Below are positions 268-15,958 of a stretch of 16,694 nt of DNA, in pieces. The notes under the pieces are model-generated. The model searched no databases and was not told where the DNA came from. It saw only the letters and a list, made by a program, of their open reading frames with translations. Source of the DNA: a virus. Lineage: Duplodnaviria; Heunggongvirae; Uroviricota; Caudoviricetes. The translations under genes and the position numbers were made by a program. The DNA lies in the IMG/VR virus record IMGVR_UViG_2617270968_000003, positions 1-16,694 of that record; one strand, given 5' to 3'. How positions within the stretch are numbered: the stretch's first letter is position 1; the number at the start of each line of letters is the position of its first letter.

Positions 268-276
268 GGAGGAACA

Positions 277-1233
277 ATGTCATACCCGCTTTTTGACAAA
301 GACGAACACTGGCATAAGCCAGAGCAGGCGTTTCTCACCGATGACCACCGGACCATTCTGCGCTTCGCCGTAGAGGCGCTAATGTCCGGTAAAGGAGCGG
401 TGCTGGTGACGCTGGTGGAGATACGCGGCGGCGCGGCGCGCCCGCTCGGGGCGCAGATGGTGGTGCGCGAAGATGGTCGTTACTGCGGTTTTGTCTCTGG
501 CGGCTGCGTGGAGGCCGCTGCCGCTTTTGAAGCGCTGGAGATGATGGGCTCAGGCCGCGATCGCGAAATTCGCTATGGCGAAGGTTCGCCGTGGTTTGAC
601 ATCGTTCTGCCCTGCGGCGGTGGGATCACGCTGACGCTCCATAAACTACGCTCGGCACAGCCTCTGCTCGCCGTGCTGAACCGCCTGGAACAGAGAAAAC
701 CGGTGGGGCTGCGCTACGATCCGCAAGCACAATCGCTGGTGTGCCTGCCCACGCAAACCCGGACGGGCTGGAATCTCAATGGCTTTGAGGTGGGGTTCAG
801 GCCATGCGTCAGGCTGATGATTTACGGACGTTCTCTTGAGGCGCAGGCAACCGCGAGTCTTGCAGCAGCCACAGGCTATGACAGCCATATCTTCGATCTT
901 TTTCCGGCCTCAGCCAGCGCTCAGATCGATACCGATACGGCGGTCATTTTGCTGTGCCATGATCTCAACCGGGAGCTGCCAGTGTTGCAGGCCGCGCGAG
1001 AAGCAAAACCCTTTTATCTCGGCGCATTGGGCAGCTATCGAACCCACACGTTACGTCTGCAAAAGCTCCACGAGCTGGGATGGTCCAGGGAGGAAACAAC
1101 GCAAATCCGGGCACCCGTCGGGATATTCCCCAAAGCCCGGGATGCGCATACTCTGGCACTCTCCGTGCTGGCAGAAGTCGCCTCTGTACGTCTCCATCAG
1201 GAGGAGGATTCATGCCTGCCCCCGTCGTCCTGA
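277..1233 (+). CDS. paoD: XdhC/CoxI-family molybdenum cofactor insertion chaperone (PaoD/YagQ-like), 318 aa
   Basis: ATG at 277 preceded by AAGGAGG; 318 aa, the length of E. coli PaoD; GC-rich codon usage; genomic context after paoC. Confidence 0.8.
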   Translation: MSYPLFDKDEHWHKPEQAFLTDDHRTILRFAVEALMSGKGAVLVTLVEIRGGAARPLGAQMVVREDGRYCGFVSGGCVEAAAAFEALEMMGSGRDREIRYGEGSPWFDIVLPCGGGITLTLHKLRSAQPLLAVLNRLEQRKPVGLRYDPQAQSLVCLPTQTRTGWNLNGFEVGFRPCVRLMIYGRSLEAQATASLAAATGYDSHIFDLFPASASAQIDTDTAVILLCHDLNRELPVLQAAREAKPFYLGALGSYRTHTLRLQKLHELGWSREETTQIRAPVGIFPKARDAHTLALSVLAEVASVRLHQEEDSCLPPSS

Positions 1234-1622
1234 TCCTTGCGGCCGGGCGTGGAGAGCGCTTTCTCGCCTCCGGGGGAAATACCCATAAGTGTATCGGCTG
1301 GCGTCAGTCCCCGGAGGTTGCGCCTTATCGCTGGCCATTTGAAGAAAACGGGAGAACTTTCGACCTTGCGATTGAACCGCAGATTACGACTAATGATCTG
1401 CGTCTGATGTTGAGGCTGGCTCTTGCCGGCGGAGGAATAACAATTGCCACTCAGGAAACTTTCAGGCCATATATTGAAAGCGGTAAGCTTGTATCGCTGC
1501 TTGATGACTTTCTTCCACAATTTCCGGGCTTCTATCTGTATTTCCCACAGCGTCGCAATATTGCACCAAAGCTCCGCGCCCTGATTGACTACGTCAAAGA
1601 ATGGCGGCAGCAATTGGCTTAA
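1212..1622 (+). CDS. yagP: YagP-like 136-aa ORF: short nucleotidyltransferase-like N-terminus (MPAPVVLILAAGRGERF) fused to a LysR-type substrate-binding domain C-terminal fragment; probably a gene remnant
   Basis: ATG at 1212 with GAGGAGGA SD, overlapping the paoD stop; 136 aa equals remembered length of K-12 YagP; C-terminal half resembles a LysR effector-domain tail; no HTH N-terminus. Confidence 0.55.
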   Translation: MPAPVVLILAAGRGERFLASGGNTHKCIGWRQSPEVAPYRWPFEENGRTFDLAIEPQITTNDLRLMLRLALAGGGITIATQETFRPYIESGKLVSLLDDFLPQFPGFYLYFPQRRNIAPKLRALIDYVKEWRQQLA

Positions 1623-1746
1623 ATGTCTGCACCTGCACTGCCTGATGTCAGAACAGTATTTTGATGAATTGCCAAGGTTACAATGGCACAAATACGGCAC
1701 AGGAGGAAACGTGGTGTATTTAAATATGGGGTAACTCTTTGATTTT

Positions 1747-3276
1747 AATGGTGCCGATAATAGGAGTCGAACCTACGACCTTCGCATTACGAATTATAAG
1801 AATCCACTTCTAATTCAAAGCATTACCCCATCAACACTGCGCTCACACGTCCCACCACATCAAAACATGTAAAGCCTTGCAAGCCATTGTGAGGCCTTAT
1901 GTGTCTCAGTTTTGTCCCACCTTGTATTACGACTTGCATAGCCAATGAAGATCAACGTGACGACAAACGGCGCAGCAGTCTTCTTTTCCTTCATACTTTC
2001 CCCAATCAGCATACATACTTTCTACCATAACTGTAGTGAATGTCTGTTATGAGCGAGCAAAAGAGATTCAATTACCGGGGAATTACTCCGACATAAGCTC
2101 TCCCAGAAACACCGGAACAGCGATTCGCATATTCTCTTCTATACTTTCAGTCTGACCGGCTGGAGATTTCATAGCAAGAAAATGGATGCGCCAAGACCTA
2201 TGCGGGAAAGAGGCTGAGGAAATAATTGCCGATAGCACTGTGCCCGCCGAAAAGTTATCTGGCACGCAATGACGCGCGTCCTTGGGGCATCAGGAATCAG
2301 AGAGCCAACTTAACAACCCATTATATATTATTTAACCGGACCGTTACATGTACAAAGTTCAATGATTAGTGATTCTGTGACGCCACATACAACCTAAGCC
2401 CCTGATATAAAACCAGTCTATGCAACACCTAAAAATCATATATGATAGGGTGATAAGTCAACGCGCAGTATAAAAATCAAGCTAAAAAATGCTTTCAGCA
2501 TAGTGAATCTATTTCACACTACATAATTAAGGATGAAAAAATGACTGCACCAGTAATTAGTTTTATCAATATGAAAGGTGGGGTTGGTAAAACAACTTTA
2601 TGCGTTGGGATTGCTGAGTTTTTAGCCAACCATATGGGGCGCAAGGTTCTAGTTATCGATATTGATCCTCAATTTAATGCCACTCAGTCCTTAATGGGGC
2701 ATTATGATCGAGTAGAAGAATATATGACTGCCCTTCGCCCTAATAATCAAACCATTCGAAAGATTTTTGAGCTTCCAAATTCATTAATGGAAGATGAAAA
2801 GAAAGTGACACCAGAACAGGTCATTACTAAAGTTTCAGACAATCTTGATATTATCTTAGGTGATATAAACATTATCTTTGATACTAACCAAGAGGGTATT
2901 AGAATAAAAATGTTGCGTAAATTCATCACCGAAAATGACTTAAAAGAAAGTTACGACTATATCTTTATCGATAGCCCCCCAACAATCTCATTATTTACAG
3001 ATACCGCACTCCTTGCTTCTGATTATTATCTTACTCCGGTTAAAATTGATCACTACTCGGTGCTTGGAGCAAGCAGTTTAAATAGCGTTATAAGAAATAT
3101 GCGCACACATCATGAGAAAGAAATCAAGCAAGTCGGTTACATTTATACAAACACTGATGCTGAAATGACCAATAAAACAAGGGAAATTAAAGAGCAATTC
3201 GAAAACCATACTCAATTTACAAATTTTTATTTCTTTGAAAATCAATTAACCTACGTGCGTGATTTAATGGTAGGTT
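1747..3276. repeat. Direct repeat copy 1 (about 1530 bp) of the element's left end: att fragment, 745-bp leader, 5' 736 nt of ParA-like gene
   Basis: Matches 15165..16694 at offset 13,418; verified by eye at both ends and at internal points; two 60-aa ORF translations in the track are identical between copies. Confidence 0.85.
1749..1794 (-). other. 46-nt 3' fragment of tRNA-Thr(CGU) (thrW-type) - attachment-site copy (ptwF-like tRNA pseudogene), copy 1
   Basis: Plus strand reads TGGTGCCGATAATAGGAGTCGAACCTACGACCTTCGCATTACGAAT, the reverse complement of a tRNA 3' end (CCA, acceptor stem, T-arm GGTTCGACTCC, anticodon loop with CGT); similarity stops where the 5' half of a tRNA should be, so the gene is partial. 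Confidence 0.8.
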
Positions 3277-3386
3277 ATCAAGGGAATATTCCTTCTTGTT
3301 ATTCAAAGTCACGCCAAGATATAGAAAAGATCTGTAACGAATTTATTAACAGAGTGGCTCACTTGGAAGGTAACACAAATGAATAA
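2541..3386 (+). CDS. ParA/MinD/Soj-family P-loop ATPase (deviant Walker A), 281 aa; first gene of a three-gene operon
   Basis: N-terminal ISFINMKGGVGKTT (KGGxGKT deviant Walker A), VIDIDPQ, IFIDSPP (ParA-type Walker B region); ATG at 2541 with AAGGA SD 7 nt upstream; AT-rich. Confidence 0.85.
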   Translation: MTAPVISFINMKGGVGKTTLCVGIAEFLANHMGRKVLVIDIDPQFNATQSLMGHYDRVEEYMTALRPNNQTIRKIFELPNSLMEDEKKVTPEQVITKVSDNLDIILGDINIIFDTNQEGIRIKMLRKFITENDLKESYDYIFIDSPPTISLFTDTALLASDYYLTPVKIDHYSVLGASSLNSVIRNMRTHHEKEIKQVGYIYTNTDAEMTNKTREIKEQFENHTQFTNFYFFENQLTYVRDLMVGYQGNIPSCYSKSRQDIEKICNEFINRVAHLEGNTNE

Positions 3387-3777
3387 ACAATTAATTAAAG
3401 CGCTCAATAAAGCTAACAATATGCCCATGACCAAAGAAAACTTCTTAGGCTTGGTAATTATGTTGATTCTTTCAAAAGAGGTTTTTAGATCAAATTTTGA
3501 TGTTAGTAAATTTATTAACAAAACCTTCAAAATATCTTTTTTGAATTATGCTGTACGGTCAAGAACTTTGATGTGCGCTAAAATTTGCAAACATATTAAT
3601 GAATTAAGTGAGAATGACATAAAGATGGCTTATACGCATTTCTTAAACAACATTAACACATTAGACATTATTTTTAATGATGCAAATAAAACAAGCCAAA
3701 AATCCACATCTAAAAGCAAGCATGCTATAAGGAATTTAAATATTTGGATTAATGCAAATAAAAAGGAAGAAGAATAA
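3379..3777 (+). CDS. Hypothetical protein, 132 aa, Lys/Asn-rich; second gene of the ParA-like operon
   Basis: ATG at 3379 overlaps the ParA stop by 8 nt (ATGAATAA) with GGAAGG SD; same AT-rich composition; no motif I can assign. Confidence 0.6.
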   Translation: MNKQLIKALNKANNMPMTKENFLGLVIMLILSKEVFRSNFDVSKFINKTFKISFLNYAVRSRTLMCAKICKHINELSENDIKMAYTHFLNNINTLDIIFNDANKTSQKSTSKSKHAIRNLNIWINANKKEEE

Positions 3778-4442
3778 TGCTCACGCAGGATCCCTTCAAC
3801 ATTGGAAGAGATGTAAATTATTTTAGAGCGGAGGTGCAAAAGCACCTCAGAACCACTGATGAAATAAACAAATCAGTATCAATATTTAGGCAAATAAGTC
3901 TTTGTAATACAATTTTAAGTCACAATCCTAATCTAAATCACTCTTCTTATATAAAAGGTTTTATATATGATACCTTAAACTCCTTAATTGCCATTATAAA
4001 AAAAAGAGAACGGTATCTCCAACTGAACTTCCGCTCAATGGTGGAGCATGTGGCCAGAATAAGCCTCAATAAGAACTACAATGGTGGGGATTTTGACCAA
4101 ACTGTACGTCGTAGAGACTTTGACTTCTTAAAAGCCCAACAAGTCGATGAAGGCTGGTCTTATTTACATAATGTCTATATCAACGCCTGTTATTATGTTC
4201 ACTCCTCCCCCCAAGCGAACCTAAATGTTACATCAACATTTATATCACTTATGGAGGGAGATTGTAATTCAACACAGCATAAAATGGTGAAAAAACTTCA
4301 TGAGGTAGTATCGGCGCTGATGAGAATCATTATAAAGTATTATCATCAGCATATCTCAAACATTTTCTTTAGAAACAAAAAGGATTTAGAGAAAATAATG
4401 GGAAAAAGCCTTTATTCATATTATACCAGCTTAGACAATTAA
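3777..4442 (+). CDS. Hypothetical protein, 221 aa; third gene of the ParA-like operon
   Basis: ATG at 3777 overlaps the previous stop (TAATG) with AAGGAAGA SD; AT-rich; no recognisable domain by eye. Confidence 0.6.
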   Translation: MLTQDPFNIGRDVNYFRAEVQKHLRTTDEINKSVSIFRQISLCNTILSHNPNLNHSSYIKGFIYDTLNSLIAIIKKRERYLQLNFRSMVEHVARISLNKNYNGGDFDQTVRRRDFDFLKAQQVDEGWSYLHNVYINACYYVHSSPQANLNVTSTFISLMEGDCNSTQHKMVKKLHEVVSALMRIIIKYYHQHISNIFFRNKKDLEKIMGKSLYSYYTSLDN

Positions 4443-4479
4443 TTCTCTCATATTCATTGCGTAGAGCATAAATATCTAT

Positions 4480-4900
4480 CTAACCACCTAAAATGCCAGA
4501 AAATCTAGTTGTATACCGGTGCGAAAATATCTCGCGTTTCATCTGCCACTGCTGCTGAATGCCCTGCCCAGCGAAACAGAGTGTTTCCTTCCCGTCTTTT
4601 GCGTTGAGGTGCTCCAGCACGCTCATTAACTTTTCGCTCCCAGGACCCAGCGCGTTATCGTCGAATAGGTTAGGGCATGCTCTGACTGAAGAAGTCCCCC
4701 AGCATTACCCCGGCTTTCTGATATCGGTGTCCGTCTTTCCATATTGCATCCAGACTCCCCGTTGCTACTGCAATGATATCCCGACTGTCCTGTGTCGGGA
4801 TGAGCAGCTTCACCGACGCGTTGTTACAGTAGTACGACTCGTTCAACGCAAAGGGTATCGTGTAAAACCGATGATGACACTGCCGGCAATCAGCACTGAC
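4480..4900 (-). pseudogene. umuC: 3' remnant of a umuC-like Y-family (Pol V) translesion polymerase gene; frameshifted and truncated
   Basis: Minus-strand translation gives ...PFALNESYYCNNASVKLLIPTQDSRDIIAVATGSLDAIWKDGHRYQKAGVMLGDFFSQ, then after a frameshift NLFDDNALGPGSEKLMSVLEHLNAKDGKETLCFAGQGIQQQWQMKREIFSHRYTTRF, closely matching the remembered C-terminal ~140 aa of E. coli UmuC; no intact ORF, N-terminal 2/3 absent. Confidence 0.75.
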
Positions 4901-5372
4901 GTCAGCAAACGTGAGAAAGAACAGATAAGCCGAACGATTTAGGAAATGTTTGAAGAGACTGATATGTGGATGGTTTCAGTTTAAACGCCTTGAACCGTCA
5001 TATTACCTAAGTACAATCCGCTGTGACTGGCAATCATTCAATACTTGCACTATCAAAAGTGCATCAGCCAACCGCAGCACGTCTTGCATACGACCTGTCT
5101 GCGGTTTCAATCACCTCTCACCACCAGTCCCATCAATAATAATTAAACAGCGCCTAAACAAAATAAATAACAACAAGTCAACAACCTCGACAGGATGCCG
5201 ATGGGATGATGAAGAGATAAGAAAGAATAACTAGTAAAGCCCTAAAACGTCAGCGTTCAGACGCGTTTTTTACTTAACCGGTAACAAATACGTTGTATCA
5301 TAGCAACATAAAATGATTGTTCTAAATCAGATTAACTCCTCACTTTTGTACAATGTCGCTTACAGGTATACC

Positions 5373-7262
5373 ATGAAATCCGAGACGCTAACTGTCCAAC
5401 AACTTTTTCAAGACCGCCGACAATACTGTGTTCCATTCTATCAACGTGCCTATGTATGGACTCAGCGAAACCAATGGTCAGCTCTACTGGAGGATATCCT
5501 AGAGAAAGCACAATCCCGGCTCTCGGGTACAAAACCAACTCCCCATTTCCTTGGTGCAGTTGTACTGGAACCTCAACCAAAAAAAGGATTATTCGGTGTA
5601 GATTCCATACATATTATTGATGGTCAGCAACGATTGACCACTCTTCAATATGTTCTGGCATCCATCCGATTAGCATTACGTGCAACAGATCTTTCCAACT
5701 TAGAGCCTCTCATTTCGTCTTGCCTGAAAAACTCAAACGAAGACACAATGCGAAATAAAGAAGTAGAGCGCTTCAAACTGTGGCCAACTTTTCGGGATCA
5801 AACTCATTTTATTCAAAGTTTTAATGTTGAAAATATTGACGATATCCGGAATGTATTCTCTGATAGTTTCACGCAGCATGGTACGTTGCGTAAGCATTTT
5901 AATCACCCGCCATCACTAGAAGCATTATGTTTTTTTACTGAAGCCTTTATAAAGTGGATTAAAATAGAAAATCACTCACCACGAGAAAATGCTGTAGCAT
6001 TAATTGAGGCTGTCTTGACGGATCTGAAACTAGTAAGCATATTTCTCGAGGCTGAAGATGACGCTCAAATAATTTTTGAAACATTAAATGGCAGAGGTGC
6101 GGAACTTCATGCCACAGATCTTATTCGCAATTATATTTTTATGTGCGCTGAACATGAAAATATTAATGCTGTTGAATTATATGAGAATGAGTGGAAGATC
6201 TTTGAAGATACGTACTGGTCAGAAAGACAACGTCGTGGTCGTATTAATAAACCACGCATGGAGTGGCTAGTGCATGCAACATTGCAATCAGAAAGGCAAC
6301 GTGAAATCGATCTGTCTCGTCTTTACAATGAGTATCGTGATTATGTAAGTAAGGACTTGCCTTCACAACGAGCAGATCTGCAAGTAAAGCGCCTCAAACA
6401 ATATGCATCACAATATAAAGAATTGGTTGGTGGTTTTGGCACAACCCCCATCTCACACTTTGGACATCGCATCGCAGCCTATGATGTGACGACACTTTAT
6501 CCGCTTGCTTTGTTCATTTCGATAGCTAACATCGCCGATGATGAGAAAGCAGCCATGTATAATGATCTTGTCTCCTACGTAGTACGAAGAGCCGTATGTG
6601 GCCTGACGCCAAAGAATTACAACAATGTATTTATGAATGTATTGCGGCACTTGTCTAAAACAGAAATTTCCAGTGTTGAGTTACGTAATATCCTCAATAG
6701 CTTAAATGGCGAAGCCTCACGTTGGCCTGGGGACTCAGAATTTCTCAACGCTTGCATCAATGCTCCACTTTATCCTGGCAGGCTCGACGCACCGAAAATG
6801 CGCTCAATGTTAACGGAACTTGAAAGAGAACTTTGTCGCCAAGTGAAGACAGAGAAGCCTGATGTTCCAAATCTTTCTAACCTCGATATCGATCATCTTA
6901 TGCCTCAAAGTTGGTATTCCTGTTGGCCTCTCGAAAATGGTCATATGGTGACAAATTCAGATGCTACGGTATTGAACCAAATTGTTCTGTCTGGAACCGA
7001 TCTTACCCCAGAACAGCTACTGGTAAGGAAACGGCAACAAGCGATAGCTACGTTGGGAAATCTAACTTTGCTTAACCTTAGCGTAAACCGTTCTGTTCAG
7101 AATGCTGTATTTCTGAAAAAACGTGATGCTCTCATCGTCCACACCAATCTACGACTGAACATTCCACTTATAGTTAAGGATAAATGGGATGAGGATGAAA
7201 TCCTGGAGCGGGGTAAAATGTTGGGGGAAATTGCATTGAAAGTATGGCCAAAACACGATTAA
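5373..7262 (+). CDS. GmrSD-family type IV (modification-dependent) restriction endonuclease: N-terminal DUF262 (ParB-like NTPase) + C-terminal DUF1524 (His-Me finger nuclease)
   Basis: DUF262 signatures VPFYQRAYVW and IIDGQQRLTT; C-terminal DIDHLMPQSW ... LGNLTLLNLSVNRSVQNAVFLKKR typical of DUF1524; about 630 aa. Start taken at 5373 (MKSETLT, weak AGG SD); in-frame ATG at 5313 is possible. Confidence 0.8.
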   Translation: MKSETLTVQQLFQDRRQYCVPFYQRAYVWTQRNQWSALLEDILEKAQSRLSGTKPTPHFLGAVVLEPQPKKGLFGVDSIHIIDGQQRLTTLQYVLASIRLALRATDLSNLEPLISSCLKNSNEDTMRNKEVERFKLWPTFRDQTHFIQSFNVENIDDIRNVFSDSFTQHGTLRKHFNHPPSLEALCFFTEAFIKWIKIENHSPRENAVALIEAVLTDLKLVSIFLEAEDDAQIIFETLNGRGAELHATDLIRNYIFMCAEHENINAVELYENEWKIFEDTYWSERQRRGRINKPRMEWLVHATLQSERQREIDLSRLYNEYRDYVSKDLPSQRADLQVKRLKQYASQYKELVGGFGTTPISHFGHRIAAYDVTTLYPLALFISIANIADDEKAAMYNDLVSYVVRRAVCGLTPKNYNNVFMNVLRHLSKTEISSVELRNILNSLNGEASRWPGDSEFLNACINAPLYPGRLDAPKMRSMLTELERELCRQVKTEKPDVPNLSNLDIDHLMPQSWYSCWPLENGHMVTNSDATVLNQIVLSGTDLTPEQLLVRKRQQAIATLGNLTLLNLSVNRSVQNAVFLKKRDALIVHTNLRLNIPLIVKDKWDEDEILERGKMLGEIALKVWPKHD

Positions 7263-7284
7263 TGCAATTAATAAAATGATTATA

Positions 7285-7310
7285 GCGGCCTTACATTAGT
7301 AAGGCCGCTA
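7285..7310 (+). terminator. Stem-loop downstream of the GmrSD gene (11-bp perfect stem AGCGGCCTTAC / GTAAGGCCGCT, 4-nt loop)
   Basis: Perfect inverted repeat 23 nt after the stop; trailing sequence only moderately T-rich, so may act as terminator or RNA-stability hairpin. Confidence 0.55.
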
Positions 7311-7512
7311 CTCACTATTAAATCCTTTAATTTGCAACAAGAACAGCAGTGTCAGCCCTAGGTTTCGGACTTTGTACCGCTTATCTTGTCTTCAAAAATC
7401 AGCTCGCATCCTGCACAGCTCAACGCATTACGTTGTAGATCGGTGTTCTGGTCATTTGTTGATACGCGTACATAGCCAATAAGCATGGTAGATCCCCCTG
7501 ACAAAAGCAGGA

Positions 7513-8085
7513 ATGATGCCATTTGCTCGTTATTTCTGCATTTTCATAAACGTTGGTTTGGGAGAAGGTGCTCCAGCTATTGGCGTTCCGTTCTTCTGGC
7601 CGTCCGCCGCAATGCCAAATACTGTAATCGACAGTTGGTCCAGTATGGTGTTTTTGAAGTTCAACGGCGCGAAATTCTCTGCCACTGATTACCCTGTGCT
7701 GGCGAAAGTGTTTCCGGCGCTAGCATTACCTGACGCACGGGGTGATTTCATTCGTATCTGGGATGATGGGCGCGGGATTGATGTCGGACGTACCCTACTT
7801 TCAGGGCAATCACACACAATTATGGATCATGCACACAATATGGAATTGTGGACGGGGGACGGGCTTGCCGCAGGAAGTGCACGGGAAGGAGTAAACCCAG
7901 GAATACTGGCTACATACGGTGACGGGGGAATAGTTAAAACGGACGAACCCGGTCTTAAGGTGCCTTCCTCACTACGAGCTCTTAGCTCTCGTAGTGTTAA
8001 ACGTTATGGTGAAATTAGTGGAAATGTAGATACAGAAACCCGTCCACGAAATATTGCATTTAACTTTCTGGTGAGGGCTAAATAA
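7513..8085 (+). CDS. Phage tail-fibre C-terminal fragment (tail-collar domain), 190-aa ORF; probably a remnant
   Basis: PFFWP...MPNTVIDSW...NGAKFSATDYPVLAKVFP...LPDARGDFIRIWDDGRGID fits the phage tail-collar pattern; C-terminal ...ETRPRNIAFNFLVRAK is tail-fibre-like; no N-terminal anchoring region and no other structural genes nearby. Confidence 0.5.
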   Translation: MMPFARYFCIFINVGLGEGAPAIGVPFFWPSAAMPNTVIDSWSSMVFLKFNGAKFSATDYPVLAKVFPALALPDARGDFIRIWDDGRGIDVGRTLLSGQSHTIMDHAHNMELWTGDGLAAGSAREGVNPGILATYGDGGIVKTDEPGLKVPSSLRALSSRSVKRYGEISGNVDTETRPRNIAFNFLVRAK

Positions 8086-8146
8086 TGATACCTGTTTTTG
8101 ATGAAAATGGGCTGGCTACAGTGCCGGGCGATATGCGTTGTTTTTA

Positions 8147-8320
8147 TTATAATGCAGTATCCCCTTCACAACGGTGAGCCACACGCCCACTCTGACGTAA
8201 CTTGCTTGCTGACTGCTGAACGCGCTGCCGCGAGTAACCAGCAAAAGCATCCGCAATGTCTCCGGAAGTACACCCCGGATTGGCTTCAATGAATTTCTGA
8301 ACGTCATTTAACAGACTCAT
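8147..8320 (-). CDS. Small hypothetical protein (57 aa), possible winged-helix DNA-binding protein, coupled to the replication gene
   Basis: ATG at 8320 lies 2 nt after the TGA stop of the upstream gene, with an AGGGGG SD; translation MSLLNDVQKFIEANPGCTSGDIADAFAGYSRQRVQQSASKLRQSGRVAHRCEGDTAL; under 60 aa so absent from the ORF track. Confidence 0.4.
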   Translation of the reverse strand: MSLLNDVQKFIEANPGCTSGDIADAFAGYSRQRVQQSASKLRQSGRVAHRCEGDTAL

Positions 8321-8322
8321 GA

Positions 8323-9264
8323 TCACCCCCTGAATCCTGCCGGGATCTGGCTGTAGTCCACGTTGTCGTAACTGGCTTTGAAGTACGGGTCTTCACGTTT
8401 TTCTGTGTGCGTGCTGACGGACGGCGATAAGCGCAGGGAAAGCTCATCCCATTTTTCCCGCAACTTCGACGGGCTGAGCACGTTACGGCACCAGAACGGA
8501 TCGCGGCTGACGCGGCTGTACATCTCGCAGATTTGTTTGTGAGTACGACCATCCTGCACACACATCAGGCGAATTTCGTTTGCCCAGGCTGTCCAGTTAG
8601 GTTCTTTGGGACGAACCACCTCGCCGTCACATTCGGCGGCCTGCTCGTACAGGGCGATGATTTTTTTCCAGAGCCACTGTGCGCAGGTCAAATCATCCTG
8701 CGTTCCCCACTGGCGCTTTTTAGAGCTGAATACAACCGCATCAGGATGACGAGTTAAAAAATCCTGTTCATCCTTCTTCATGTCCGGTTGCGAAGCGTCC
8801 GGACGAGAAGTTTTTTTATCTGACGGATCATGTTTTGATTTTACTGACGGATCCCCGCCAGATTCTGACGGGTGAAAACCCGCTTTTTTGCCAGATTTCG
8901 ACGCATCAAATTTTGACGGGTCAGATTTTGATGCGTCAGATTTTGACGGGTCAGAATCTGACAGTTGAGAAAATGCCGCTGCCTGAAGCTTCGCAACGTT
9001 AAGCTGATAAACATTCGACGCATTGCGGTTACCCTGGCGACGCGCCTTACGCGTTAACCAGCCTTCTGCTTCCAGCCGTGCGATAGCCGTTCTGACGGTA
9101 CTCATCCCCGCGCCAATCTGGCGGGCAATGGTTTCAATTGATGGCCAGCACACACCTTCGTCATTACTGAAATCAGCCAGGCGGGCCATAATTGCCACGC
9201 TGGATAACTTCATGCCTGACGCAGCGCAACCATCCCATACATAGCCGGTTAATTTAGTGCTCAT
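8323..9264 (-). CDS. Phage replication initiation protein (lambda O-like: N-terminal winged HTH, pentapeptide-repeat linker, C-terminal domain), 313 aa
   Basis: N-terminus LSSVAIMARLADFSNDEGVCWPSIETIARQIGAGMSTVRTAIARLEAEGWLTRKARRQGNRNASNVYQLN resembles replication-initiator wHTH domains; GAGG SD before ATG at 9264; position after cro/CII genes on the same strand. Confidence 0.65.
   Translation of the reverse strand: MSTKLTGYVWDGCAASGMKLSSVAIMARLADFSNDEGVCWPSIETIARQIGAGMSTVRTAIARLEAEGWLTRKARRQGNRNASNVYQLNVAKLQAAAFSQLSDSDPSKSDASKSDPSKFDASKSGKKAGFHPSESGGDPSVKSKHDPSDKKTSRPDASQPDMKKDEQDFLTRHPDAVVFSSKKRQWGTQDDLTCAQWLWKKIIALYEQAAECDGEVVRPKEPNWTAWANEIRLMCVQDGRTHKQICEMYSRVSRDPFWCRNVLSPSKLREKWDELSLRLSPSVSTHTEKREDPYFKASYDNVDYSQIPAGFRG
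8861..8964. repeat. Imperfect tandem 15-bp repeats (GATTTTGACGGGTCA-like, about 6 units) inside the replication-initiator gene, encoding DPSKS/DASKS pentapeptide repeats
   Basis: Units at 8861, 8894, 8909, 8924, 8939 and a partial one at 8954; protein shows SDSDPSKSDASKSDPSKFDASKSGKK. Confidence 0.8.
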
Positions 9265-9273
9265 GACCGACCT

Positions 9274-9612
9274 CTATTTCCCTGAATTTACGACGAAACT
9301 GTTCGAGCGGGCTGAAGCACTCATGCTCATAGCCTTCGCGGAGGTAGATAACCCGTTGTGTTTCCGGCTCCCAACGAATGACTCTGACGGGTACTCCGTA
9401 GTGATCTTTGAACCAGCGGTTAACTTGTCGCAAAGGACTGTCTCCTTCTGCCGGTTGAAATCACCCACAGCCCACTCTGCAAAGCTGTGGGTTACAATTT
9501 CCCTGTCACCTGGTACATTCACTGCATAGCAATATTCCACCTTCGCTTTTCCACCCGGTACAGGAAGCGCAATCAGTTGCGAGCGACGGTAGTGTGTTGT
9601 TAAACTGTTCAT
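9274..9612 (-). CDS. Hypothetical protein, 112 aa, between CII-like and replication genes
   Basis: ATG at 9612 overlaps the CII-like stop as ATGA; GGAGA SD 9 nt upstream; stop 9 nt before the next gene's SD. Contains a 9-bp perfect hairpin at 9463..9492. No recognisable domain. Confidence 0.45.
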
Positions 9613-10178
9613 GCGTTAGTTTCTCCACAACCAGAAGCAATCGACGCCACGACGCCCGGAGCTGCACACTCGCGGGCGTCATTACTTTCTGAAATGCAAA
9701 AAATTTTGTAAACAAGTGCTGCATGCTCCTGCAGCTTCGAAATTGAGAGATACAGCTCGTCGTTAATTGCTGTCTTCTCATGCGGTTCCACTACACCGTC
9801 TTCGATTGCTGAACGAATCTGTTTTGAATAACTGCCGATCTGTTCAATGACTTCCAGCAGACGCTGGTTAATATCGGCGTTGTCCACATCCTCGACGTCA
9901 GGAAGAGACACAAAGACGCCATTTGCAGACTGCGCCACAGCATCAGCAATGAAGTGAGTGCCACCAGCACGCTGTAAAACCATTGCCCATCCCAGCGGGA
10001 AAATCTGATCGCCATCTGCACGAAGGCGGTTGAATAAAGCGTTTTCTGTTACATCGAGCCAGTCAGCCGCTTCAGCGTAACCACCCGGCAACGCCGCGAT
10101 AGTTTTTCTGACAGCTTTCACGTACCACTCAGGCTGTTTTTCTATTTTCCAGTGATGCTTACCCACGATTAGCCTCAT
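9609..10178 (-). CDS. Phage regulatory protein, CII-like (CP76/YdaT-like family), 189 aa
   Basis: Immediately downstream of the cro-like gene on the same strand, as lambda cII is; size and context fit the enterobacterial prophage CII-like family; family assignment is from memory. Confidence 0.5.
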
Positions 10179-10209
10179 CGTTCTGTGGTTAAAAATTGAA
10201 AGTGTTCTG

Positions 10210-10410
10210 CTAATCTTTCGGATAGATATCCGGTCTTAAGTCAGATTTCGTAATTGCACCTGACGTGCATTGCTCAAGTTTTTTAGCCAGCACAAAACTG
10301 GCTTTTTTATAGCCATTGAAAACCAGCCGTAAGTAGCCAGGTGTTGAGCCAACTTTTCCGGCCAACTCGCCCTGCTGTTCTTTGGTTAAAGAGTCCCAAT
10401 ACGATTTCAT
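10210..10410 (-). CDS. Cro/YdaS-like HTH transcriptional regulator, 66 aa
   Basis: ATG at 10410 with GGAGG SD 9 nt upstream; MKSYWDSLTKEQQGELAGKVGSTPGYLRLVFNGYKKASFVLAKKLEQCTSGAITKSDLRPDIY resembles Cro/YdaS-type HTH proteins; divergent from the cI-like gene. The longer 167-aa ORF in the track is an upstream extension without SD. Confidence 0.65.
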   Translation of the reverse strand: MKSYWDSLTKEQQGELAGKVGSTPGYLRLVFNGYKKASFVLAKKLEQCTSGAITKSDLRPDIYPKD

Positions 10411-10500
10411 ACGATATGTACCTCCGGTGTACATATTACATGATTGAAATGAACCTTCAAGATACTTGTACCTTAACGGTACAAGGGTTTTAATTTCGTT
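10411..10500. promoter_or_regulatory. Divergent cI/cro intergenic control region with two palindromic operator-like sites
   Basis: Inverted repeats ATGTACCTCCGGTGTACAT (10416..10434) and CTTGTACC-TTAAC-GGTACAAG (10465..10485), both built on TGTACC/GGTACA half-sites, between divergent repressor and cro-like starts. Confidence 0.6.
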
Positions 10501-11175
10501 ATGAAAACAATCCATGACATCCGGCGGTCTAACGCCAGAAAACTGAGAGATGGTGTTGGCGGGAATTCTTCCTTTGCCACTATGATTGATCGCGAGCCAA
10601 CCCAGACCAGCAGGTTTATGGGAGATGGTGCTACTAAAAATATCGGTGACAGCATGGCACGACACATCGAAAAATGTTTCGACCTGCCTGTCGGATGGCT
10701 CGATCAAGAACACCAGACAACGAACATCACAAAAAAACCTGATGTTTCAATCACTAATAAACAAATCACATTAGTCCCTGTCATATCATGGGTACAGGCC
10801 GGAGCATGGAAAGAAGTTGGATATTCTGAGGTTGATTTGAGCACAGCAGAAACGTATCCCTGCCCTGTACCCTGTGGGGAAATGACTTATATCTTGCGGG
10901 TGATAGGTGATTCAATGATTGATGAGTACCGCCCGGGAGACATGATTTTTGTCGATCCTGAAGTACCTGCCTGCCACGGTGACGACGTTATTGCATTGAT
11001 GCACGATACAGGTGAAACCACCTTCAAAAGGTTGATAGAAGATGGGACACAGCGTTATCTCAAAGCGTTAAACCCAAACTGGCCTGAGCCTTACATTAAG
11101 ATCAACGGTAATTGCTCTATAATTGGAACTGTGATTTTCTCAGGAAAACCAAGAAGATACAAAATCAAAGCCTAA
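10501..11175 (+). CDS. CI-like phage repressor with C-terminal S24 (LexA-like) autopeptidase domain, 224 aa
   Basis: C-terminal VIGDSMIDEYRPGDMIFVDP...GDDVIA (S24 Ser site GDSM, later Lys); divergent from cro-like gene; no SD upstream of the ATG, so possibly leaderless like lambda cI from PRM. Confidence 0.75.
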   Translation: MKTIHDIRRSNARKLRDGVGGNSSFATMIDREPTQTSRFMGDGATKNIGDSMARHIEKCFDLPVGWLDQEHQTTNITKKPDVSITNKQITLVPVISWVQAGAWKEVGYSEVDLSTAETYPCPVPCGEMTYILRVIGDSMIDEYRPGDMIFVDPEVPACHGDDVIALMHDTGETTFKRLIEDGTQRYLKALNPNWPEPYIKINGNCSIIGTVIFSGKPRRYKIKA

Positions 11176-11187
11176 TCAATGTTTATG

Positions 11188-11210
11188 AACCTGCTTCGGC
11201 AGGTTTTTTT
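11188..11210 (+). terminator. Rho-independent terminator after the cI-like gene
   Basis: AACCTGC-TTCG-GCAGGTT hairpin followed by TTTTTTT, 13 nt after the stop. Confidence 0.75.
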
Positions 11211-11214
11211 ATAC

Positions 11215-11243
11215 TTGACAATGTACCCTTGAGATACATAATG
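11215..11243 (+). promoter_or_regulatory. Sigma70-like promoter (TTGACA, 17-nt spacer, ATAATG) overlapped by two direct AATGTACCC repeats
   Basis: TTGACA at 11215..11220 and CATAAT/ATAATG at 11237..11243; the repeats share the TGTACC half-site seen in the cI/cro operators. Confidence 0.5.
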
Positions 11244-11323
11244 TACCCAAGAGAAACAACAAACAGGCAGAACGCCCACGAAGTAGCCGCCTGGGGCATA
11301 TGAAGTCCAGGATGATTCGTTAG

Positions 11324-11351
11324 CAACAAAAAAGCGCCCTACAGGACGCTT
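11324..11351 (-). terminator. Rho-independent terminator on the minus strand (8-bp stem with one G-U, UGUA loop, U-run)
   Basis: Minus strand reads AAGCGUCC-UGUA-GGGCGCUU followed by UUUUUUGUUG; on the plus strand the hairpin lacks a U-run. Confidence 0.55.
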
Positions 11352-11409
11352 AGCTCTTTAACAATCTGGTCCCCATCAACAAGTAACTGATAACTTGAGG
11401 AGGTGTGAA

Positions 11410-11616
11410 ATGCACAAAACAGAACCCAAAATCGTCGCGCCCGGATACACAAATGAGGAAATTTACGAGTGGATGGCAAAGAAGCTGGCAGCTATAAACC
11501 AGCTTCGTGAAGTGCTGTCTTATCGACAGGAAATAATAGACTCCTTAAAAAAACTGGATCAGGAAATCACGGTTTTATCACAGGATGTTACTTTAGATAT
11601 TGTGCAGACAAATTAG
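11410..11616 (+). CDS. Small hypothetical protein, 68 aa
   Basis: ATG at 11410 with GAGGAGGTG SD; coiled-coil-like composition; 3' end overlaps the convergent 144-aa gene by 29 nt. Confidence 0.5.
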   Translation: MHKTEPKIVAPGYTNEEIYEWMAKKLAAINQLREVLSYRQEIIDSLKKLDQEITVLSQDVTLDIVQTN

Positions 11617-12022
11617 GATCCCATTCATTTTCGTCAAAATCATCAAAGTGATGAATTTGTGATCTCCAGTCTCGATAATCTAAAAATTTCTGGGCGGTTA
11701 CGCTTATTTTATCAAGTGTGAGTTCATCCTGAATTGAAAGAAGAAGTTCATCAAATTTCATCTCATTAATCTGTTTTGGCATCCAGTGATGCTTCATCAG
11801 AATAAGGTGAACCAGAGCCTTTTTCCCATTCAACTGATTATAGGGAGTGCCGAATTTCTTCCGGTGCTCATGTAAGACAAGGTCCAGAAGAGTAAGTAAT
11901 GTTGCCCTTGATTCGACTTTGCTTATTTCGACTGATGACACTACCCCACTGATTTCAATGCCCCGATACTTTCCAACATTTTCACAGTGGGATTTGTACA
12001 GCGTGTAGATATTACCGGACAT
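11588..12022 (-). CDS. Hypothetical protein, 144 aa; orphan accessory gene in the immunity region
   Basis: ATG at 12022 with AAGGAAAAG SD; AT-rich; no recognisable domain; sits where lambdoid phages carry rex/sie-type exclusion genes. Confidence 0.55.
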   Translation of the reverse strand: MSGNIYTLYKSHCENVGKYRGIEISGVVSSVEISKVESRATLLTLLDLVLHEHRKKFGTPYNQLNGKKALVHLILMKHHWMPKQINEMKFDELLLSIQDELTLDKISVTAQKFLDYRDWRSQIHHFDDFDENEWDPNLSAQYLK

Positions 12023-12099
12023 TTCTTTTCCTTTTGCGTTGTTGGGGATAACCAGATTAACCGAATCCTTGTTGTTGGGGAATAACCAGGTCCACCTCG

Positions 12100-12500
12100 C
12101 CTGATGTGGCTAAAAGCAGGCACATAACAGCTAAGTATTTTCAACCAGAGAGAATCCTTAGCGTTGTGGTGAATGCGGCTCAGCGCACGCGGGTTAAGGT
12201 TGAGGCTGACAGTCGACCTTCTGTGGATACCTACCCGCCTGGTGTGCAACCTTCGCCAGGCACCGGGAGGCACCCGGCACCACAACTTTATGCTGTGTGT
12301 AGTCCTGGCGGTACCAGTTTGTACCCTTGCTTCCGGCTGGTACCGTCCTTTTTACAAAACAGAGAAGAGCATCACCGGACGACGGGCTCATAACCCAATC
12401 CATCCGGGCGGCTGCCACCGCAGGTGTTCTTCTCTGTTTTGTGGAGAAACTAACCGCCCCTGCGGGGGCATCTATTGAAACGTAATTGACTCAATAATCG
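12100..12500. other. GC-rich, hairpin-dense non-coding block upstream of the early operon; candidate structured RNA and/or operator region
   Basis: ORFs open in several frames on both strands (typical of GC-rich non-coding DNA); 15-bp perfect inverted repeat 12354..12368 / 12428..12442; 9-bp hairpin 12309..12317 / 12337..12345; further GC hairpins at about 12237..12262, 12263..12280 and 12456..12470. Confidence 0.4.
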
Positions 12501-12567
12501 CCGGATGGTGAGGGCTTCCTTTTCCCAAAATTCAGCGCGGTGCAGCGCATATAAAGTGGAGAACGAA

Positions 12568-13104
12568 ATGTCATTTATTAAAACTTTTTCCGGGAAGCAT
12601 TTTTATTATGACAAGATAAATAAAGACGACATCGTTATTAACGATATCGCGGTTTCCCTTTCAAATATCTGCCGCTTTGCCGGTCATCTTTCTCACTTCT
12701 ACAGCGTCGCCCAACATGCGGTGCTTTGCAGCCAGCTGGTGCCGCAGGAATTTGCTTTTGAAGCTTTAATGCATGATGCAACAGAAGCATATTGCCAGGA
12801 CATCCCCGCACCACTGAAACGACTTCTTCCTGACTATAAACGGATGGAAGAAAAAATAGACGCCGTAATCCGTGAGAAATACGGGTTACCTCCTGTTATG
12901 AGCACGCCAGTGAAATATGCCGATCTCATTATGCTGGCAACCGAACGCCGCGATCTCGGGCTTGATGATGGCTCTTTCTGGCCTGTGCTGGAAGGTATCC
13001 CGGCAACAGAGATGTTCAACGTGATTCCACTGGCTCCAGGCCATGCCTACGGGATGTTTATGGAACGCTTTAACGAATTATCGGAGTTACGCAAATGCGC
13101 ATGA
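12568..13104 (+). CDS. HD-domain metal-dependent phosphohydrolase (YfbR/YfdR-like 5'-deoxynucleotidase family), 178 aa
   Basis: H...HD...D pattern (SVAQHAV, LMHDATEAY, QDIP); ATG at 12568 with GGAG SD; the track's 12505 start has no SD. Confidence 0.65.
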   Translation: MSFIKTFSGKHFYYDKINKDDIVINDIAVSLSNICRFAGHLSHFYSVAQHAVLCSQLVPQEFAFEALMHDATEAYCQDIPAPLKRLLPDYKRMEEKIDAVIREKYGLPPVMSTPVKYADLIMLATERRDLGLDDGSFWPVLEGIPATEMFNVIPLAPGHAYGMFMERFNELSELRKCA

Positions 13105-13457
13105 ATGTTTTCGAAATGGAAGGGTTTCTTCGTGGGAGATGTGTACCGCGAGATCTGAAAGTGAATGAAACGGATGCTGAATACCTAGTGCGTAAATTCG
13201 ATGCGCTTGAAGCTAAATGTGCAGCACAGGAAAACAAAGTAATACCAGTGTCAACTGAACTGCCACCAGCAAATGAAAGTGTTTTGTTATTCGATGCTAA
13301 CGGAGAAGGCTGGCTAATTGGCTGGCGTTCTCTCTGGTACACCTGGGGACAAAAAGAAACCGGAGAATGGCAGTGGACATTTCAGGTCGGGGACCTTGAA
13401 AACGTCAATATCACTCACTGGGCAGTAATGCCAAAAGCACCGGAGGCTGGAGCATAA
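13095..13457 (+). CDS. DUF551-like phage protein, 120 aa
   Basis: Trp-rich C-terminal half (GWLIGWRSLWYTWGQ...WQW...THWAVMP) typical of DUF551 prophage proteins; start overlaps the HD gene stop; GGAG SD. Confidence 0.5.
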   Translation: MRMNVFEMEGFLRGRCVPRDLKVNETDAEYLVRKFDALEAKCAAQENKVIPVSTELPPANESVLLFDANGEGWLIGWRSLWYTWGQKETGEWQWTFQVGDLENVNITHWAVMPKAPEAGA

Positions 13458-13762
13458 TGACCACTTTTACCGACAAAGAACTGATTAAAGAAATTAAAGA
13501 GCGTATCAGCAGCCTTGACGTGCGAGACGATATTGAGCGCCGTGCTTATGAAATCGCACTCCTATCTCTGGAAGTAGAACCAGATGAACGCGAAGCTTAT
13601 GAATTATTCATGGAAAAGCGTTTTGGTGACTTAGTAGATCGTCGGAGAGCAAAAAACGGCGATAACGAATACATGGCATGGAATATGACTCTCGGTTGGA
13701 TCGTCTGGCAGCAACGAGCTGGTATCCATTTCTCAAAAATCTCACAGCAAGAGGTGAAATAA
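13457..13762 (+). CDS. Hypothetical phage protein, 101 aa
   Basis: ATG overlaps the previous stop (TAATG); stop overlaps the xis start (TAATG); part of a coupled operon. Confidence 0.5.
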   Translation: MTTFTDKELIKEIKERISSLDVRDDIERRAYEIALLSLEVEPDEREAYELFMEKRFGDLVDRRRAKNGDNEYMAWNMTLGWIVWQQRAGIHFSKISQQEVK

Positions 13763-14112
13763 TGGAGCCATACAGCCTCACACTCGATGAGGCCTGTCAT
13801 TTTCTCAAGATATCCAGACCGACTGCCATTAACTGGATACGCACAGGGCGTCTTCAGGCAACACGCAAAGATCCCACTAAGAATAAATCTCCTTACCTCA
13901 CAACACGACAAGCCTGCATTGCGGCTCTTCAGTCTCCGCTGCATACTGTCCAGGTGAGCGCGGGTGATGGCATAACAGAGGAAAGAAAATGTCACTCTTC
14001 CGCAGAGGTGAAATATGGTACGCCAGTTTCACATTGCCGAACGGTAAAAGATTTAAACAGTCTCTTGGAACAAAGGACAAAAGGCAGGCGACAGAACTCC
14101 ATGACAAGCTAA
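13762..14112 (+). CDS. xis: Excisionase (Xis/AlpA-type HTH), 116 aa, overlapping the integrase start
   Basis: [37 protein letters not shown] matches the excisionase-family HTH pattern; GAGGTG SD before ATG at 13762; 3' 124 nt overlap the integrase in another frame. Confidence 0.65.
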
Positions 14113-15152
14113 AGGCTGAAGCATGGCGGGTCAGCAAACTTGGTGAAATACCTGATATAACGTTCGAGGAAGCGTGTGTCAGGTGGCTTGAAGAGAAAGC
14201 ACATAAAAAATCACTGGACGATGACAAAAGCCGGATCGGATTCTGGCTTCAACATTTCGCAGGAATGCAACTAAGAGACATTACTGAATCAAAAATTTAT
14301 TCAGCAATGCAGAAAATGACGAACCGGCGTCATGAGGAAAACTGGAGACTCAGGGCAGAAGCATGCAGAAAAAAAGGGAAACCTGTTCCAGAATACACGC
14401 CAAAACCAGCGTCCGTTGCAACGAAGGCTACGCATCTTTCATTTATAAAGGCCCTACTAAGAGCCGCAGAGCGTGAATGGAAAATGCTGGATAAGGCACC
14501 AATTATTAAAGTGCCTCAACCAAAGAATAAACGGATCCGCTGGCTGGAGCCCCATGAAGCACAAAGGCTGATTGATGAATGTCCGGAGCCATTAAAGTCT
14601 GTTGTTGAATTTGCACTGGCAACAGGTTTAAGACGCTCGAACATCATCAACCTTGAATGGCAACAAATAGATATGCAGCGCCGGGTGGCATGGATAAACC
14701 CGGAAGAGAGTAAATCAAACCGCGCAATTGGCGTTGCGCTGAATGATACTGCATGTCGCGTATTGAAAAAACAAATCGGGAATCATCACCGTTGGGTATT
14801 TGTGTACAAGGAAAGCTGTACCAAACCAGACGGAACGAAAGCGCCAACAGTAAGGAAGATGCGGTATGACGCAAACACAGCCTGGAAAGCGGCGCTGAGA
14901 CGGGCTGGTATTGATGATTTCAGATTTCACGACTTGAGACACACCTGGGCAAGTTGGCTGGTTCAAGCCGGAGTCCCGTTGTCAGTGTTACAGGAAATGG
15001 GAGGCTGGGAGTCTATCGAAATGGTTCGTCGATATGCTCACCTTGCACCTAATCACCTTACCGAACACGCACGGCAAATAGACTCGATCCTGAACCCATC
15101 GGTCCCAAATTTGTCCCAGTCAAAAAATAAGGAAGGTACTAATGATGTGTAA
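13989..15152 (+). CDS. int: Tyrosine-type site-specific recombinase (phage integrase), 387 aa
   Basis: N-terminal arm-binding-like [34 protein letters not shown]; C-terminal catalytic [12 protein letters not shown] ... MVRRYAHL (R-H-R-Y); ends 14 nt before the tRNA-fragment att copy. Confidence 0.85.
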
Positions 15153-15166
15153 CTTATTGATTTAAA

Positions 15167-15212
15167 TGGTGCCGATAATAGGAGTCGAACCTACGACCTT
15201 CGCATTACGAAT
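15167..15212 (-). other. 46-nt 3' fragment of tRNA-Thr(CGU), attachment-site copy 2, directly after int
   Basis: Identical to the fragment at 1749..1794; again followed by element-left-end sequence instead of the tRNA 5' half. Confidence 0.8.
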
Positions 15213-15958
15213 TATAAGAATCCACTTCTAATTCAAAGCATTACCCCATCAACACTGCGCTCACACGTCCCACCACATCAAAACATGTAAAGCCTTGCAA
15301 GCCATTGTGAGGCCTTATGTGTCTCAGTTTTGTCCCACCTTGTATTACGACTTGCATAGCCAATGAAGATCAACGTGACGACAAACGGCGCAGCAGTCTT
15401 CTTTTCCTTCATACTTTCCCCAATCAGCATACATACTTTCTACCATAACTGTAGTGAATGTCTGTTATGAGCGAGCAAAAGAGATTCAATTACCGGGGAA
15501 TTACTCCGACATAAGCTCTCCCAGAAACACCGGAACAGCGATTCGCATATTCTCTTCTATACTTTCAGTCTGACCGGCTGGAGATTTCATAGCAAGAAAA
15601 TGGATGCGCCAAGACCTATGCGGGAAAGAGGCTGAGGAAATAATTGCCGATAGCACTGTGCCCGCCGAAAAGTTATCTGGCACGCAATGACGCGCGTCCT
15701 TGGGGCATCAGGAATCAGAGAGCCAACTTAACAACCCATTATATATTATTTAACCGGACCGTTACATGTACAAAGTTCAATGATTAGTGATTCTGTGACG
15801 CCACATACAACCTAAGCCCCTGATATAAAACCAGTCTATGCAACACCTAAAAATCATATATGATAGGGTGATAAGTCAACGCGCAGTATAAAAATCAAGC
15901 TAAAAAATGCTTTCAGCATAGTGAATCTATTTCACACTACATAATTAAGGATGAAAAA

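Follow-up and report, generated by a model that had tools for sequence, protein, structure and literature searches.

Phage SfIV integrates at the tRNA gene thrW through a 46-bp attP common to SfI and SfV, carries gtr cargo beside int-attP, and uses cos packaging (PMC3851460). In Escherichia coli K-12, excision of the cryptic prophage e14 is increased 356-fold by mitomycin C and 13% of cells lose e14, and CPS-53 (KpLE1), a remnant of about 10 kb, still excises at low frequency (PMC3105296). Phage-inducible chromosomal islands (PICIs), a type of phage satellite, are recognised by prophage-free att sites, an AlpA activator, a pri-rep primase-helicase, PICI-exclusive genes, helper-dependent rather than SOS induction, and specific packaging (PMC6092414). 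The DNA analysed here, positions 1 to 16,694 of IMG/VR virus record IMGVR_UViG_2617270968_000003 and referred to as the window (16,694 nt in full), contains one unit of 13,418 bp (nt 1749–15166), for which an original prediction made from the letters alone had offered a choice between a defective prophage and a satellite/PICI-like island with defence cargo. The first part of this proposal was supported and the second was not. With a probability of roughly 0.6, the element is a cryptic lambdoid prophage of the SfIV/SfV-e14 group at thrW, made by one deletion of about 25 kb and perhaps still excising through its Int/Xis module.

The window was a piece of the E. coli chromosome, in which nt 1–1622 ran from the end of paoC through paoD to a truncated LysR-type gene. 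The proposed limits of the element were confirmed, nt 1749 being the first base of a 46-nt thrW att core that recurred at nt 15167–15212, so that the core stood at both borders. In 5 complete genomes carrying the same element, its right end adjoined tRNA-Thr thrW, followed by proA and proB; thus, the element lies in the thrW attachment site. To the right of the left core the sequence was phage-like: nt 1731–1919 shared 97% identity with SfIV beside its attP, nt 1732–2056 matched a 44-kb phage contig in IMG/VR, and nt 1700–2057 were matched by phage phi458. As predicted, int, xis, a repressor/Cro/CII-like switch with operators, and an O-like initiator were all found in their expected places (Table 1). 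The predicted absence of lysis and morphogenesis genes was likewise confirmed, since the list of open reading frames (ORFs) and the Pfam, PHROG and NCBIfam scans of the window yielded no match to terminase, capsid, tail, lysis, or P/DnaC-type genes. The only structural trace had been described as a tail-fibre collar fragment, which proved to be a C-terminal fragment at nt 7549–8085 with a weak match to Pfam Collar, accompanied by 24 codons of a tail-fibre assembly gene. The umuC remnant taken as a sign of degradation was a frameshifted DUF4113 fragment, and remnants of DinI, a SOS-response-associated (SRAP) peptidase and pin were found besides. Neither Rfam nor ARAGORN gave an RNA match in the window.

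SfIV (NC_022749.1) was collinear with nt 8157–15337, with the same gene order and 98.2–98.4% DNA identity. The shared part extended from int and xis through the early genes, the switch and the O-like initiator to the start of a PerC-like gene; the 46-bp core in thrW and a slot for cargo, with attP on one side and the tail-fibre genes on the other, were also common to both. The Int proteins were identical at 386 of 387 residues between the element and SfIV, and at 371 of 372 between the element and a prophage of strain ML775; Xis was RefSeq WP_000433939.1, the same protein as in the ML775 prophage. However, SfIV is a complete inducible cos phage of 39.8 kb, whereas the element lacked the stretch from the PerC-like gene through the baseplate genes, in addition to a 1.3-kb early segment, and carried a GmrSD gene and a ParA cassette where SfIV carries gtrABC. 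The ML775 prophage, approximately 41 kb, was located between the same paoD flank and thrW, had a left-end cargo 99.5% identical to that of the element, and possessed a full set of Q, lysis, HNH/terminase, head, Mu-like tail and baseplate genes. Because the same cargo is thus present on a full-size prophage, it must be older than the 25-kb deletion. Another complete relative was pCE-O153H30-A (NZ_CP172337.1), a circle of 44.8 kb deposited as a plasmid; its pinE is intact, its cargo slot is filled by Avs2, and it is more likely to be the genome of an excised phage than a plasmid.

The missing late genes could be traced to a single joint. Many genomes had intact stf-tfa genes with 100% identity to nt 7900–8159, and in many others the beginning of the PerC/yfdN-like gene plus the end of the O-like gene matched nt 8157–8420 at 98.5% identity, the two matches overlapping by 3 bp. 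Since both parents read GTA at the break, one deletion fused tfa at codon 24, which lies in the silent arm of an invertible segment, to the PerC-like gene at its codon 57; the uncut PerC-like gene of ML775 and SfIV has 495 nt. With either of these two as reference the deletion was about 25–27 kb, with loss of antiterminator Q and of the lysis, cos/terminase, head, tail and baseplate genes. A second scar was found at about nt 12456–12467, where 1,292 bp of SfIV (yfdQ/DUF2303 plus part of gp34) were gone between two similar hairpin sequences. At the level of sequence, these joints establish the origin of the element from a phage of about 40 kb by the 25-kb deletion and the 1.3-kb one.

Among 5,426 complete E. 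coli genomes, 5 had the joint at nt 8157–8159 (four of them from a single Brazilian collection, the fifth Swiss); it was further found in one IMG isolate, in one NCBI draft genome, and in about 17 Sequence Read Archive (SRA) contigs, with the element in single copy beside thrW wherever the context was visible. No species-representative genome possessed it, no plasmid record spanned it, and the only IMG/VR entry was one isolate-derived provirus, a single copy beside thrW. Two carriers, IAL7255 and BS74R-D, had insertion sequences (ISs) within the element. Collinearity with SfIV and with the full-size prophage that occupies thrW in ML775, two scars, gene remnants, and IS insertions in sister copies together identify a defective prophage with defence cargo.

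The control region pointed to the same group of phages. Nt 9031–11324 shared 98.95% identity with e14, and YmfK was identical to e14 YmfK at all 224 residues. Gene ymfK was divergent from ymfT, the operators were located between them, and ymfL was downstream of ymfT, which is the lambdoid immunity layout. Three operators were counted in the window against 0.28 by chance, the third of which (nt 11222–11238) had one mismatch. In the neighbourhood of this third site, just downstream of ymfK, a 20-bp unit occurred twice (nt 11220–11258), overlapping the operator-like site and the promoter-like hexamers; this repeat may be a pair of early-left operators. Like the element, e14 (15.2 kb) is a remnant in the 13- to 15-kb range with int, xis, ymfK, ymfT, ymfL, ymfM and an invertible tail-fibre segment with pin, and has a type IV restriction gene next to att, namely mcrA in e14 versus GmrSD here. 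The two differ in that e14 uses IntE/XisE and the icd site, and keeps terminase, portal and baseplate fragments, an intact pinE, and only 234 nt of the O-like gene, whereas in the element the O-like gene and its iterons were intact, pin was truncated, and the morphogenesis genes were all gone. CPS-53 is likened by gene names alone, as yfdN, yfdR, yfdT and the YfdS family recur in the element or its ML775 relative; it has a different integrase, IntS, and a different site. The attachment site of CPS-53 is argW.

The O-like protein was identical to its ML775 counterpart at 307 of 313 residues. Iterons in or near this gene had been suggested as a check, and seven iteron-like sites were indeed found within it, where 7 of the 8 window matches to the pattern fell in nt 8858–8961 against a whole-window chance expectation of 0.28. 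Their location in the linker-coding part of the initiator gene is the arrangement of lambda O and its origin. The helicase loader said to be missing was indeed not found in the scans, but functional SfIV and the full-size ML775 prophage have no annotated P or DnaC-type gene either; its absence is therefore a family trait, and was dropped as evidence of decay.

At the right border, the window did not pass from the element into thrW. Beyond nt 15212 it left the thrW sequence and continued as nt 1795 onwards, with no tRNA recognised by ARAGORN, and nt 15165–16694 were 100% identical to nt 1747–3276 (1,530 bp). Because the junction consists of the int side, the core and the left arm, either the element was head-to-tail with a second copy in the source or the assembly caught a circular form. 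Between one repeat copy and the other there were three differences, each of them left of the core, where the bacterial-side arm was present at attL and the int-side arm at the second site; the att repeats shared 48 identical bp, or 64 bp at 95% identity. In the 18 bp immediately left of the core (nt 1731–1748 versus 15149–15166), 15 positions were alike. The homology thus extends beyond the tRNA part, and this likeness may be a vestige of the 3′-end of an older integrase gene at attL. Identity of the copies over 1,530 bp, as opposed to the 0.3–0.5% difference of ML775, indicates that the tandem event was recent and took place within the source lineage; for the same reason, a separately acquired relative as the second copy was ruled out.

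Tandem arrangement has precedents at this site. SfI integrates in tandem at the attL of resident SfX, at thrW (PMC3306764). A full-size relative was in tandem in the chromosome of E. coli ET201 (NZ_CP100994.1; locus about 19189–24505), with the order portal ... int, attP, GmrSD gene, pin remnant, tail genes ... portal. The ET201 assembly was rich in frameshifts, and its tandem may be a true double lysogen or induced phage DNA affecting the long-read assembly. Strains 3150 and EC21Z-144 had remnants of integrase genes directly left of attL, the residue of older arrays. In these two strains, the same att arm was used by prophages of different types (with lambda J-type tails) and with different cargo, namely AbiE, a large reverse transcriptase, and a type II restriction-modification pair. 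Taken together, the integrase remnants and the varied cargo and prophage types sharing one att arm indicate that thrW holds arrays of elements, with the att-proximal cargo swapped between phage types.

Neither the exact 72-nt junction pattern, in IMG/VR, metagenomes and species-representative genomes, nor the plasmid records revealed the small element in tandem or circular form a second time. The only IMG/VR match was the 44-kb full-size phage contig, the single metagenome match was an attL-type site, and species-representative genomes gave zero. Looking up the exact integrase for places where int is followed by ParA showed that the protein is very common (5,870 blocks), and all ten places displayed adjoined proA. 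A 13,430-bp Logan (SRA) contig was discarded as a candidate circular form, its length being that expected of a unitig between the repeated 48-bp cores at k=31 (15194-1765+1), which says nothing of topology.

By analogy with e14 and SfIV, the following course may be proposed. In the resting state, YmfK would repress both divergent promoters and confer superinfection immunity of the e14 type, while the cargo would act constitutively and protect the host against other phages. Upon an SOS signal, self-cleavage of YmfK would allow expression of the early operons, including xis and int, and the element could excise as a 13.4-kb circle, like e14, which may replicate from the O/iteron origin. Neither lysis of the cell nor specific packaging is expected, because Q, the lysis genes, cos and the morphogenesis genes are gone. 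The simplest account of the tandem junction would be a by-product of Int/Xis action between sister chromosomes or re-integration of the circle. The junction hints at possible continued recombination of the remnant at att and fits, but does not prove, an Int/Xis module that is functional like that of e14.

Several points weigh against a cryptic prophage that still excises. Its excision, replication and SOS control are deduced from sequence identity with e14 and SfIV. The second copy was visible over 1,530 bp only and could belong to a full-size sibling, and the junction could also have arisen from RecA-mediated unequal crossing-over between the 48- to 64-bp att repeats or from faulty assembly; the small element was not seen in circular or tandem form in any further assembly, plasmid record or viral contig. 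Replication might depend on genes that were deleted from the region downstream of the initiator. In addition, the IS insertions in sister copies show that selection does not maintain all the modules. The original prediction had named, as refuting evidence, clear deletion scars together with a lack of excision or replication, the marks of an inert remnant of a full-size prophage; the scars were found (nt 8157–8159 and about 12456–12467), whereas inertness was not established, given the attP-type junction in the window.

An element of the same origin but now inert, with Int/Xis and the switch unused and the junction produced by RecA-mediated unequal crossing-over (perhaps selected for the dosage of defence genes) or by an assembly artefact, is a possible though rather unlikely alternative. 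The att repeats are long enough for occasional homologous exchange, and this alternative would fit the single-copy state of all other carriers, the IS insertions in IAL7255 and BS74R-D, and the lack of a circular or plasmid record. However, Int, Xis, YmfK, YmfT, YmfL and the O-like protein are all intact and 98–100% identical to proteins of SfIV or excision-proficient e14, Int-mediated tandem integration is documented for SfI at thrW (PMC3306764), and the equality of copies 1 and 2 over 1,530 bp points to a recent event.

We consider it improbable that the window shows a tandem double lysogen, in which the small element is the decayed partner of a full-size sibling that shares its left end. 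In favour of it, copy 2 was seen over its first 1,530 bp only, a full-size tandem does occur in ET201, and the integrase remnants left of attL in 3150 and EC21Z-144 mean that arrays form and decay at thrW. Against this, all inspectable carriers of the joint had the small element alone beside thrW, and copy 2 was 100% equal to copy 1, whereas the full-size relative in ML775 was 0.3–0.5% different.

More doubtful still would be a self-excising mini-element that replicates from the O/iteron origin and persists as tandem or circular copies, with ParA possibly retaining the excised form and an SfIV-like helper moving it without cos, through a cointegrate with a tandem full-size sibling or recombination across the 7 kb of shared early region. 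If true, it would represent a prophage in transition to a carrier of defence genes that resembles a satellite.

Gram-negative PICIs of the EcCICFT073 type resemble the element in being 12–15 kb, with an integrase, a replication module and accessory cargo and without structural or lytic genes. At 13.4 kb and with no structural or lytic genes, the element agrees with two of the screening criteria of PMC6092414; it carries int, a regulator, a replication module and anti-phage cargo, and its attP-type junction implies some form of recombination at att. Unlike those PICIs, it showed neither a prophage-free site nor AlpA, pri-rep, PICI-exclusive genes or specific packaging. The thrW site is the standard one for full-size SfI, SfII, SfIV and SfV phages and for the ML775 prophage. 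The Pfam, PHROG and NCBIfam scans gave no match to Phage_AlpA or a pri-rep primase-helicase; the control region, with its S24 repressor and O-like initiator, is lambdoid rather than of the AlpA type, as had been noted from the sequence. The profile searches proposed for small-terminase or capsid-redirection genes revealed none, nor any ppi or rpp-type gene, and the cos/terS region of SfIV had no similarity anywhere in the window; an unrecognised pac site is possible. Each gene in the part shared with SfIV and ML775 had a counterpart in those full-size phages, and the single deletion joint accounts for the size: the small size and the missing late genes fit a PICI, yet they result from the deletion and not from a satellite nature. 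The S24 repressor predicts induction by SOS and not by a helper. Occurrence of the joint in 5 of 5,426 genomes with near-identical flanks argues against frequent transfer, and no viral-particle-type contig held it. A PICI-like satellite with helper-dependent induction and packaging, high-frequency spread and defence cargo is thus extremely unlikely, and the element should not be counted as a PICI-like island on size and gene content. Its weight for satellite biology is small, because it exemplifies textbook prophage decay like that of e14 and CPS-53; its points of note are the tandem junction and an uncharacterised cassette encoding ParA, a protein of unknown function and a HEPN-like protein.

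Table 1 Features located in the window, with positions in nt of the window
Feature	Position	Strand	Basis or remark
attL core	1749–1794		46-nt copy of the 3′ part of tRNA-Thr thrW (tRNA on minus strand); identical to 15167–15212 and to the 3′ 46 nt of thrW in IAL7250
Phage-side att arm (P′)	1795–2057		Kept beside the core in related phages
SRAP peptidase remnant	2174–2313	+	RefSeq on identical IAL7250 sequence: frameshifted, N-terminus missing
ParA/MinD-type ATPase, 281 aa, cassette gene 1	2541–3386	+	Pfam AAA_31 7.9e-38; PHROG 164 ParA-like
Protein X, 132 aa, cassette gene 2	3379–3777	+	Only PHROG 6264, unknown function
Protein Y, 221 aa, predicted HEPN fold, cassette gene 3	3777–4442	+	Structure prediction
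umuC C-terminal remnant (DUF4113), frameshifted	4480–4861	-	RefSeq
DinI remnant	4856–4942	+	RefSeq
GmrSD-type (DUF262/DUF1524) type IV restriction enzyme, intact	5373–7262	+	Pfam GmrSD_N 7.9e-34, GmrSD_C 5.8e-20
Pin-type invertase remnant, N-terminal 41 codons	7364–7486	-	RefSeq
Tail-fibre C-terminal segment, silent copy of invertible segment	7549–8085	+	RefSeq 'phage tail protein, missing N-terminus'; weak Pfam Collar
Tail-fibre assembly gene (tfa), first 24 codons	8085–8156	+	RefSeq
Joint of ~25-kb deletion, 3-bp microhomology GTA	8157–8159		Left parent tfa, right parent PerC/yfdN-like gene, both GTA at break
PerC/YfdN-like regulator, N-terminal 57 codons, cut by deletion	8156–8326	-	RefSeq; PHROG 1324 and 23071
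O-like replication initiator, intact	8323–9264	-	PHROG 391 'replication initiation O-like' 1e-134; Pfam HTH_36
Seven iteron-like 13–15-bp sites CGTCARAATYTGR, internally palindromic, candidate origin	8858–8961		In linker-coding part of O-like gene; Tandem Repeats Finder period 15, 4.3 copies
ymfM homologue (e14 SOS-inducible division inhibitor), 112 aa	9274–9612	-	Within 99%-identical block shared with e14
ymfL, CII-like regulator	9609–10166	-	Pfam Phage_CP76 1.3e-13; PHROG 101 CII-like 7e-71
ymfT, Cro-like helix-turn-helix protein	10210–10410	-	RefSeq ymfT; weak YdaS/HTH_3 matches
Two perfect palindromic operators TGTAC-N7-GTACA	10417–10433 and 10467–10483		Between ymfT and ymfK
ymfK, CI/LexA-like S24 repressor	10501–11175	+	Pfam Peptidase_S24 1.5e-26
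Near-consensus promoter-like site TTGACA-16-CATAAT, candidate early-left promoter	11215–11242	+	Overlaps third operator, points to xis/int; in e14 99% block
Small hypothetical gene	11410–11616	+	RefSeq annotation; no family match
ECs1072-family phage-associated gene	11588–12022	-	NCBIfam NF033230 1.7e-46
Frameshifted hypothetical gene with second deletion scar	12166–12485	+	RefSeq annotation; SfIV comparison
yfdR, HD-domain 5′-deoxynucleotidase	12568–13104	+	RefSeq; weak YfbR-like Pfam match
YfdS-like (DUF551) early gene	13095–13457	+	Family scans
YfdT-like early gene	13457–13762	+	Family scans
Excisionase xis (HTH_17)	13762–14112	+	PHROG 2907 excisionase 1e-50; Pfam HTH_17
Tyrosine integrase, thrW-specific	13989–15152 (start 13989/14034)	+	Pfam Phage_integrase 3.5e-48
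Second 46-nt core, attP-type junction (int side, core, left arm)	15167–15212		Not attR/thrW junction
Start of second identical copy (P′ arm, SRAP remnant, first part of ParA)	15213–16694	+	Repeat of left end

The att-adjacent slot, which holds the gtrABC serotype conversion genes in SfIV and mcrA in e14, contained the GmrSD gene and the ParA cassette among older remnants. The predicted GmrSD-type enzyme combined an N-terminal GmrSD_N and a C-terminal GmrSD_C (His-Me nuclease) domain in one protein, both above the Pfam cut-offs, and matched PADLOC mREase_IV with 1436 bits over profile positions 1–629 of 629. The three-gene cassette (nt 2541–4442) was low in GC, 31–34%. The ParA/X/Y trio was kept together in Dickeya and Yersinia in unrelated mobile contexts, with X always between the ParA gene and the third gene, and was found in strain 3150 at the left end of a lambda-J-type prophage. 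For protein Y, the predicted model (predicted local distance difference test score 88) had HEPN domains as its best structural matches, and R86-x4-H91 was invariant in 27 homologues. Pfam, NCBIfam and PADLOC gave nothing informative for genes 2 and 3; in PADLOC 2023 the cassette had no strong match, with weak partial ones (best 1.9e-06) to the ParA P-loop region, and a literature search yielded nothing specific on a ParA plus HEPN defence system. The cassette is a plausible candidate for a toxin-antitoxin or abortive-infection module. The slot that is occupied by gtr in the thrW phages of Shigella thus holds anti-phage cargo in E. coli: GmrSD here, Avs2 in pCE-O153H30-A, and the type II restriction-modification pair in EC21Z-144.

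To the right of the cargo, nt 7363–7568 shared 95% identity with the pinE/stfE border of e14, and the tail-fibre segment (nt 7549–8085) matched the ML775 tail fibre in inverted orientation. Among the early genes, a DUF4222 frame (nt 9254–9433; Pfam 8.6e-19) overlapped ymfM; RefSeq annotates DUF4222 instead, and the gene callers of other assemblies choose either. Beside the second scar, within the frameshifted hypothetical gene, there was an inverted repeat (nt 12354–12442) whose 25-nt arms were 84% complementary and 39 nt apart.

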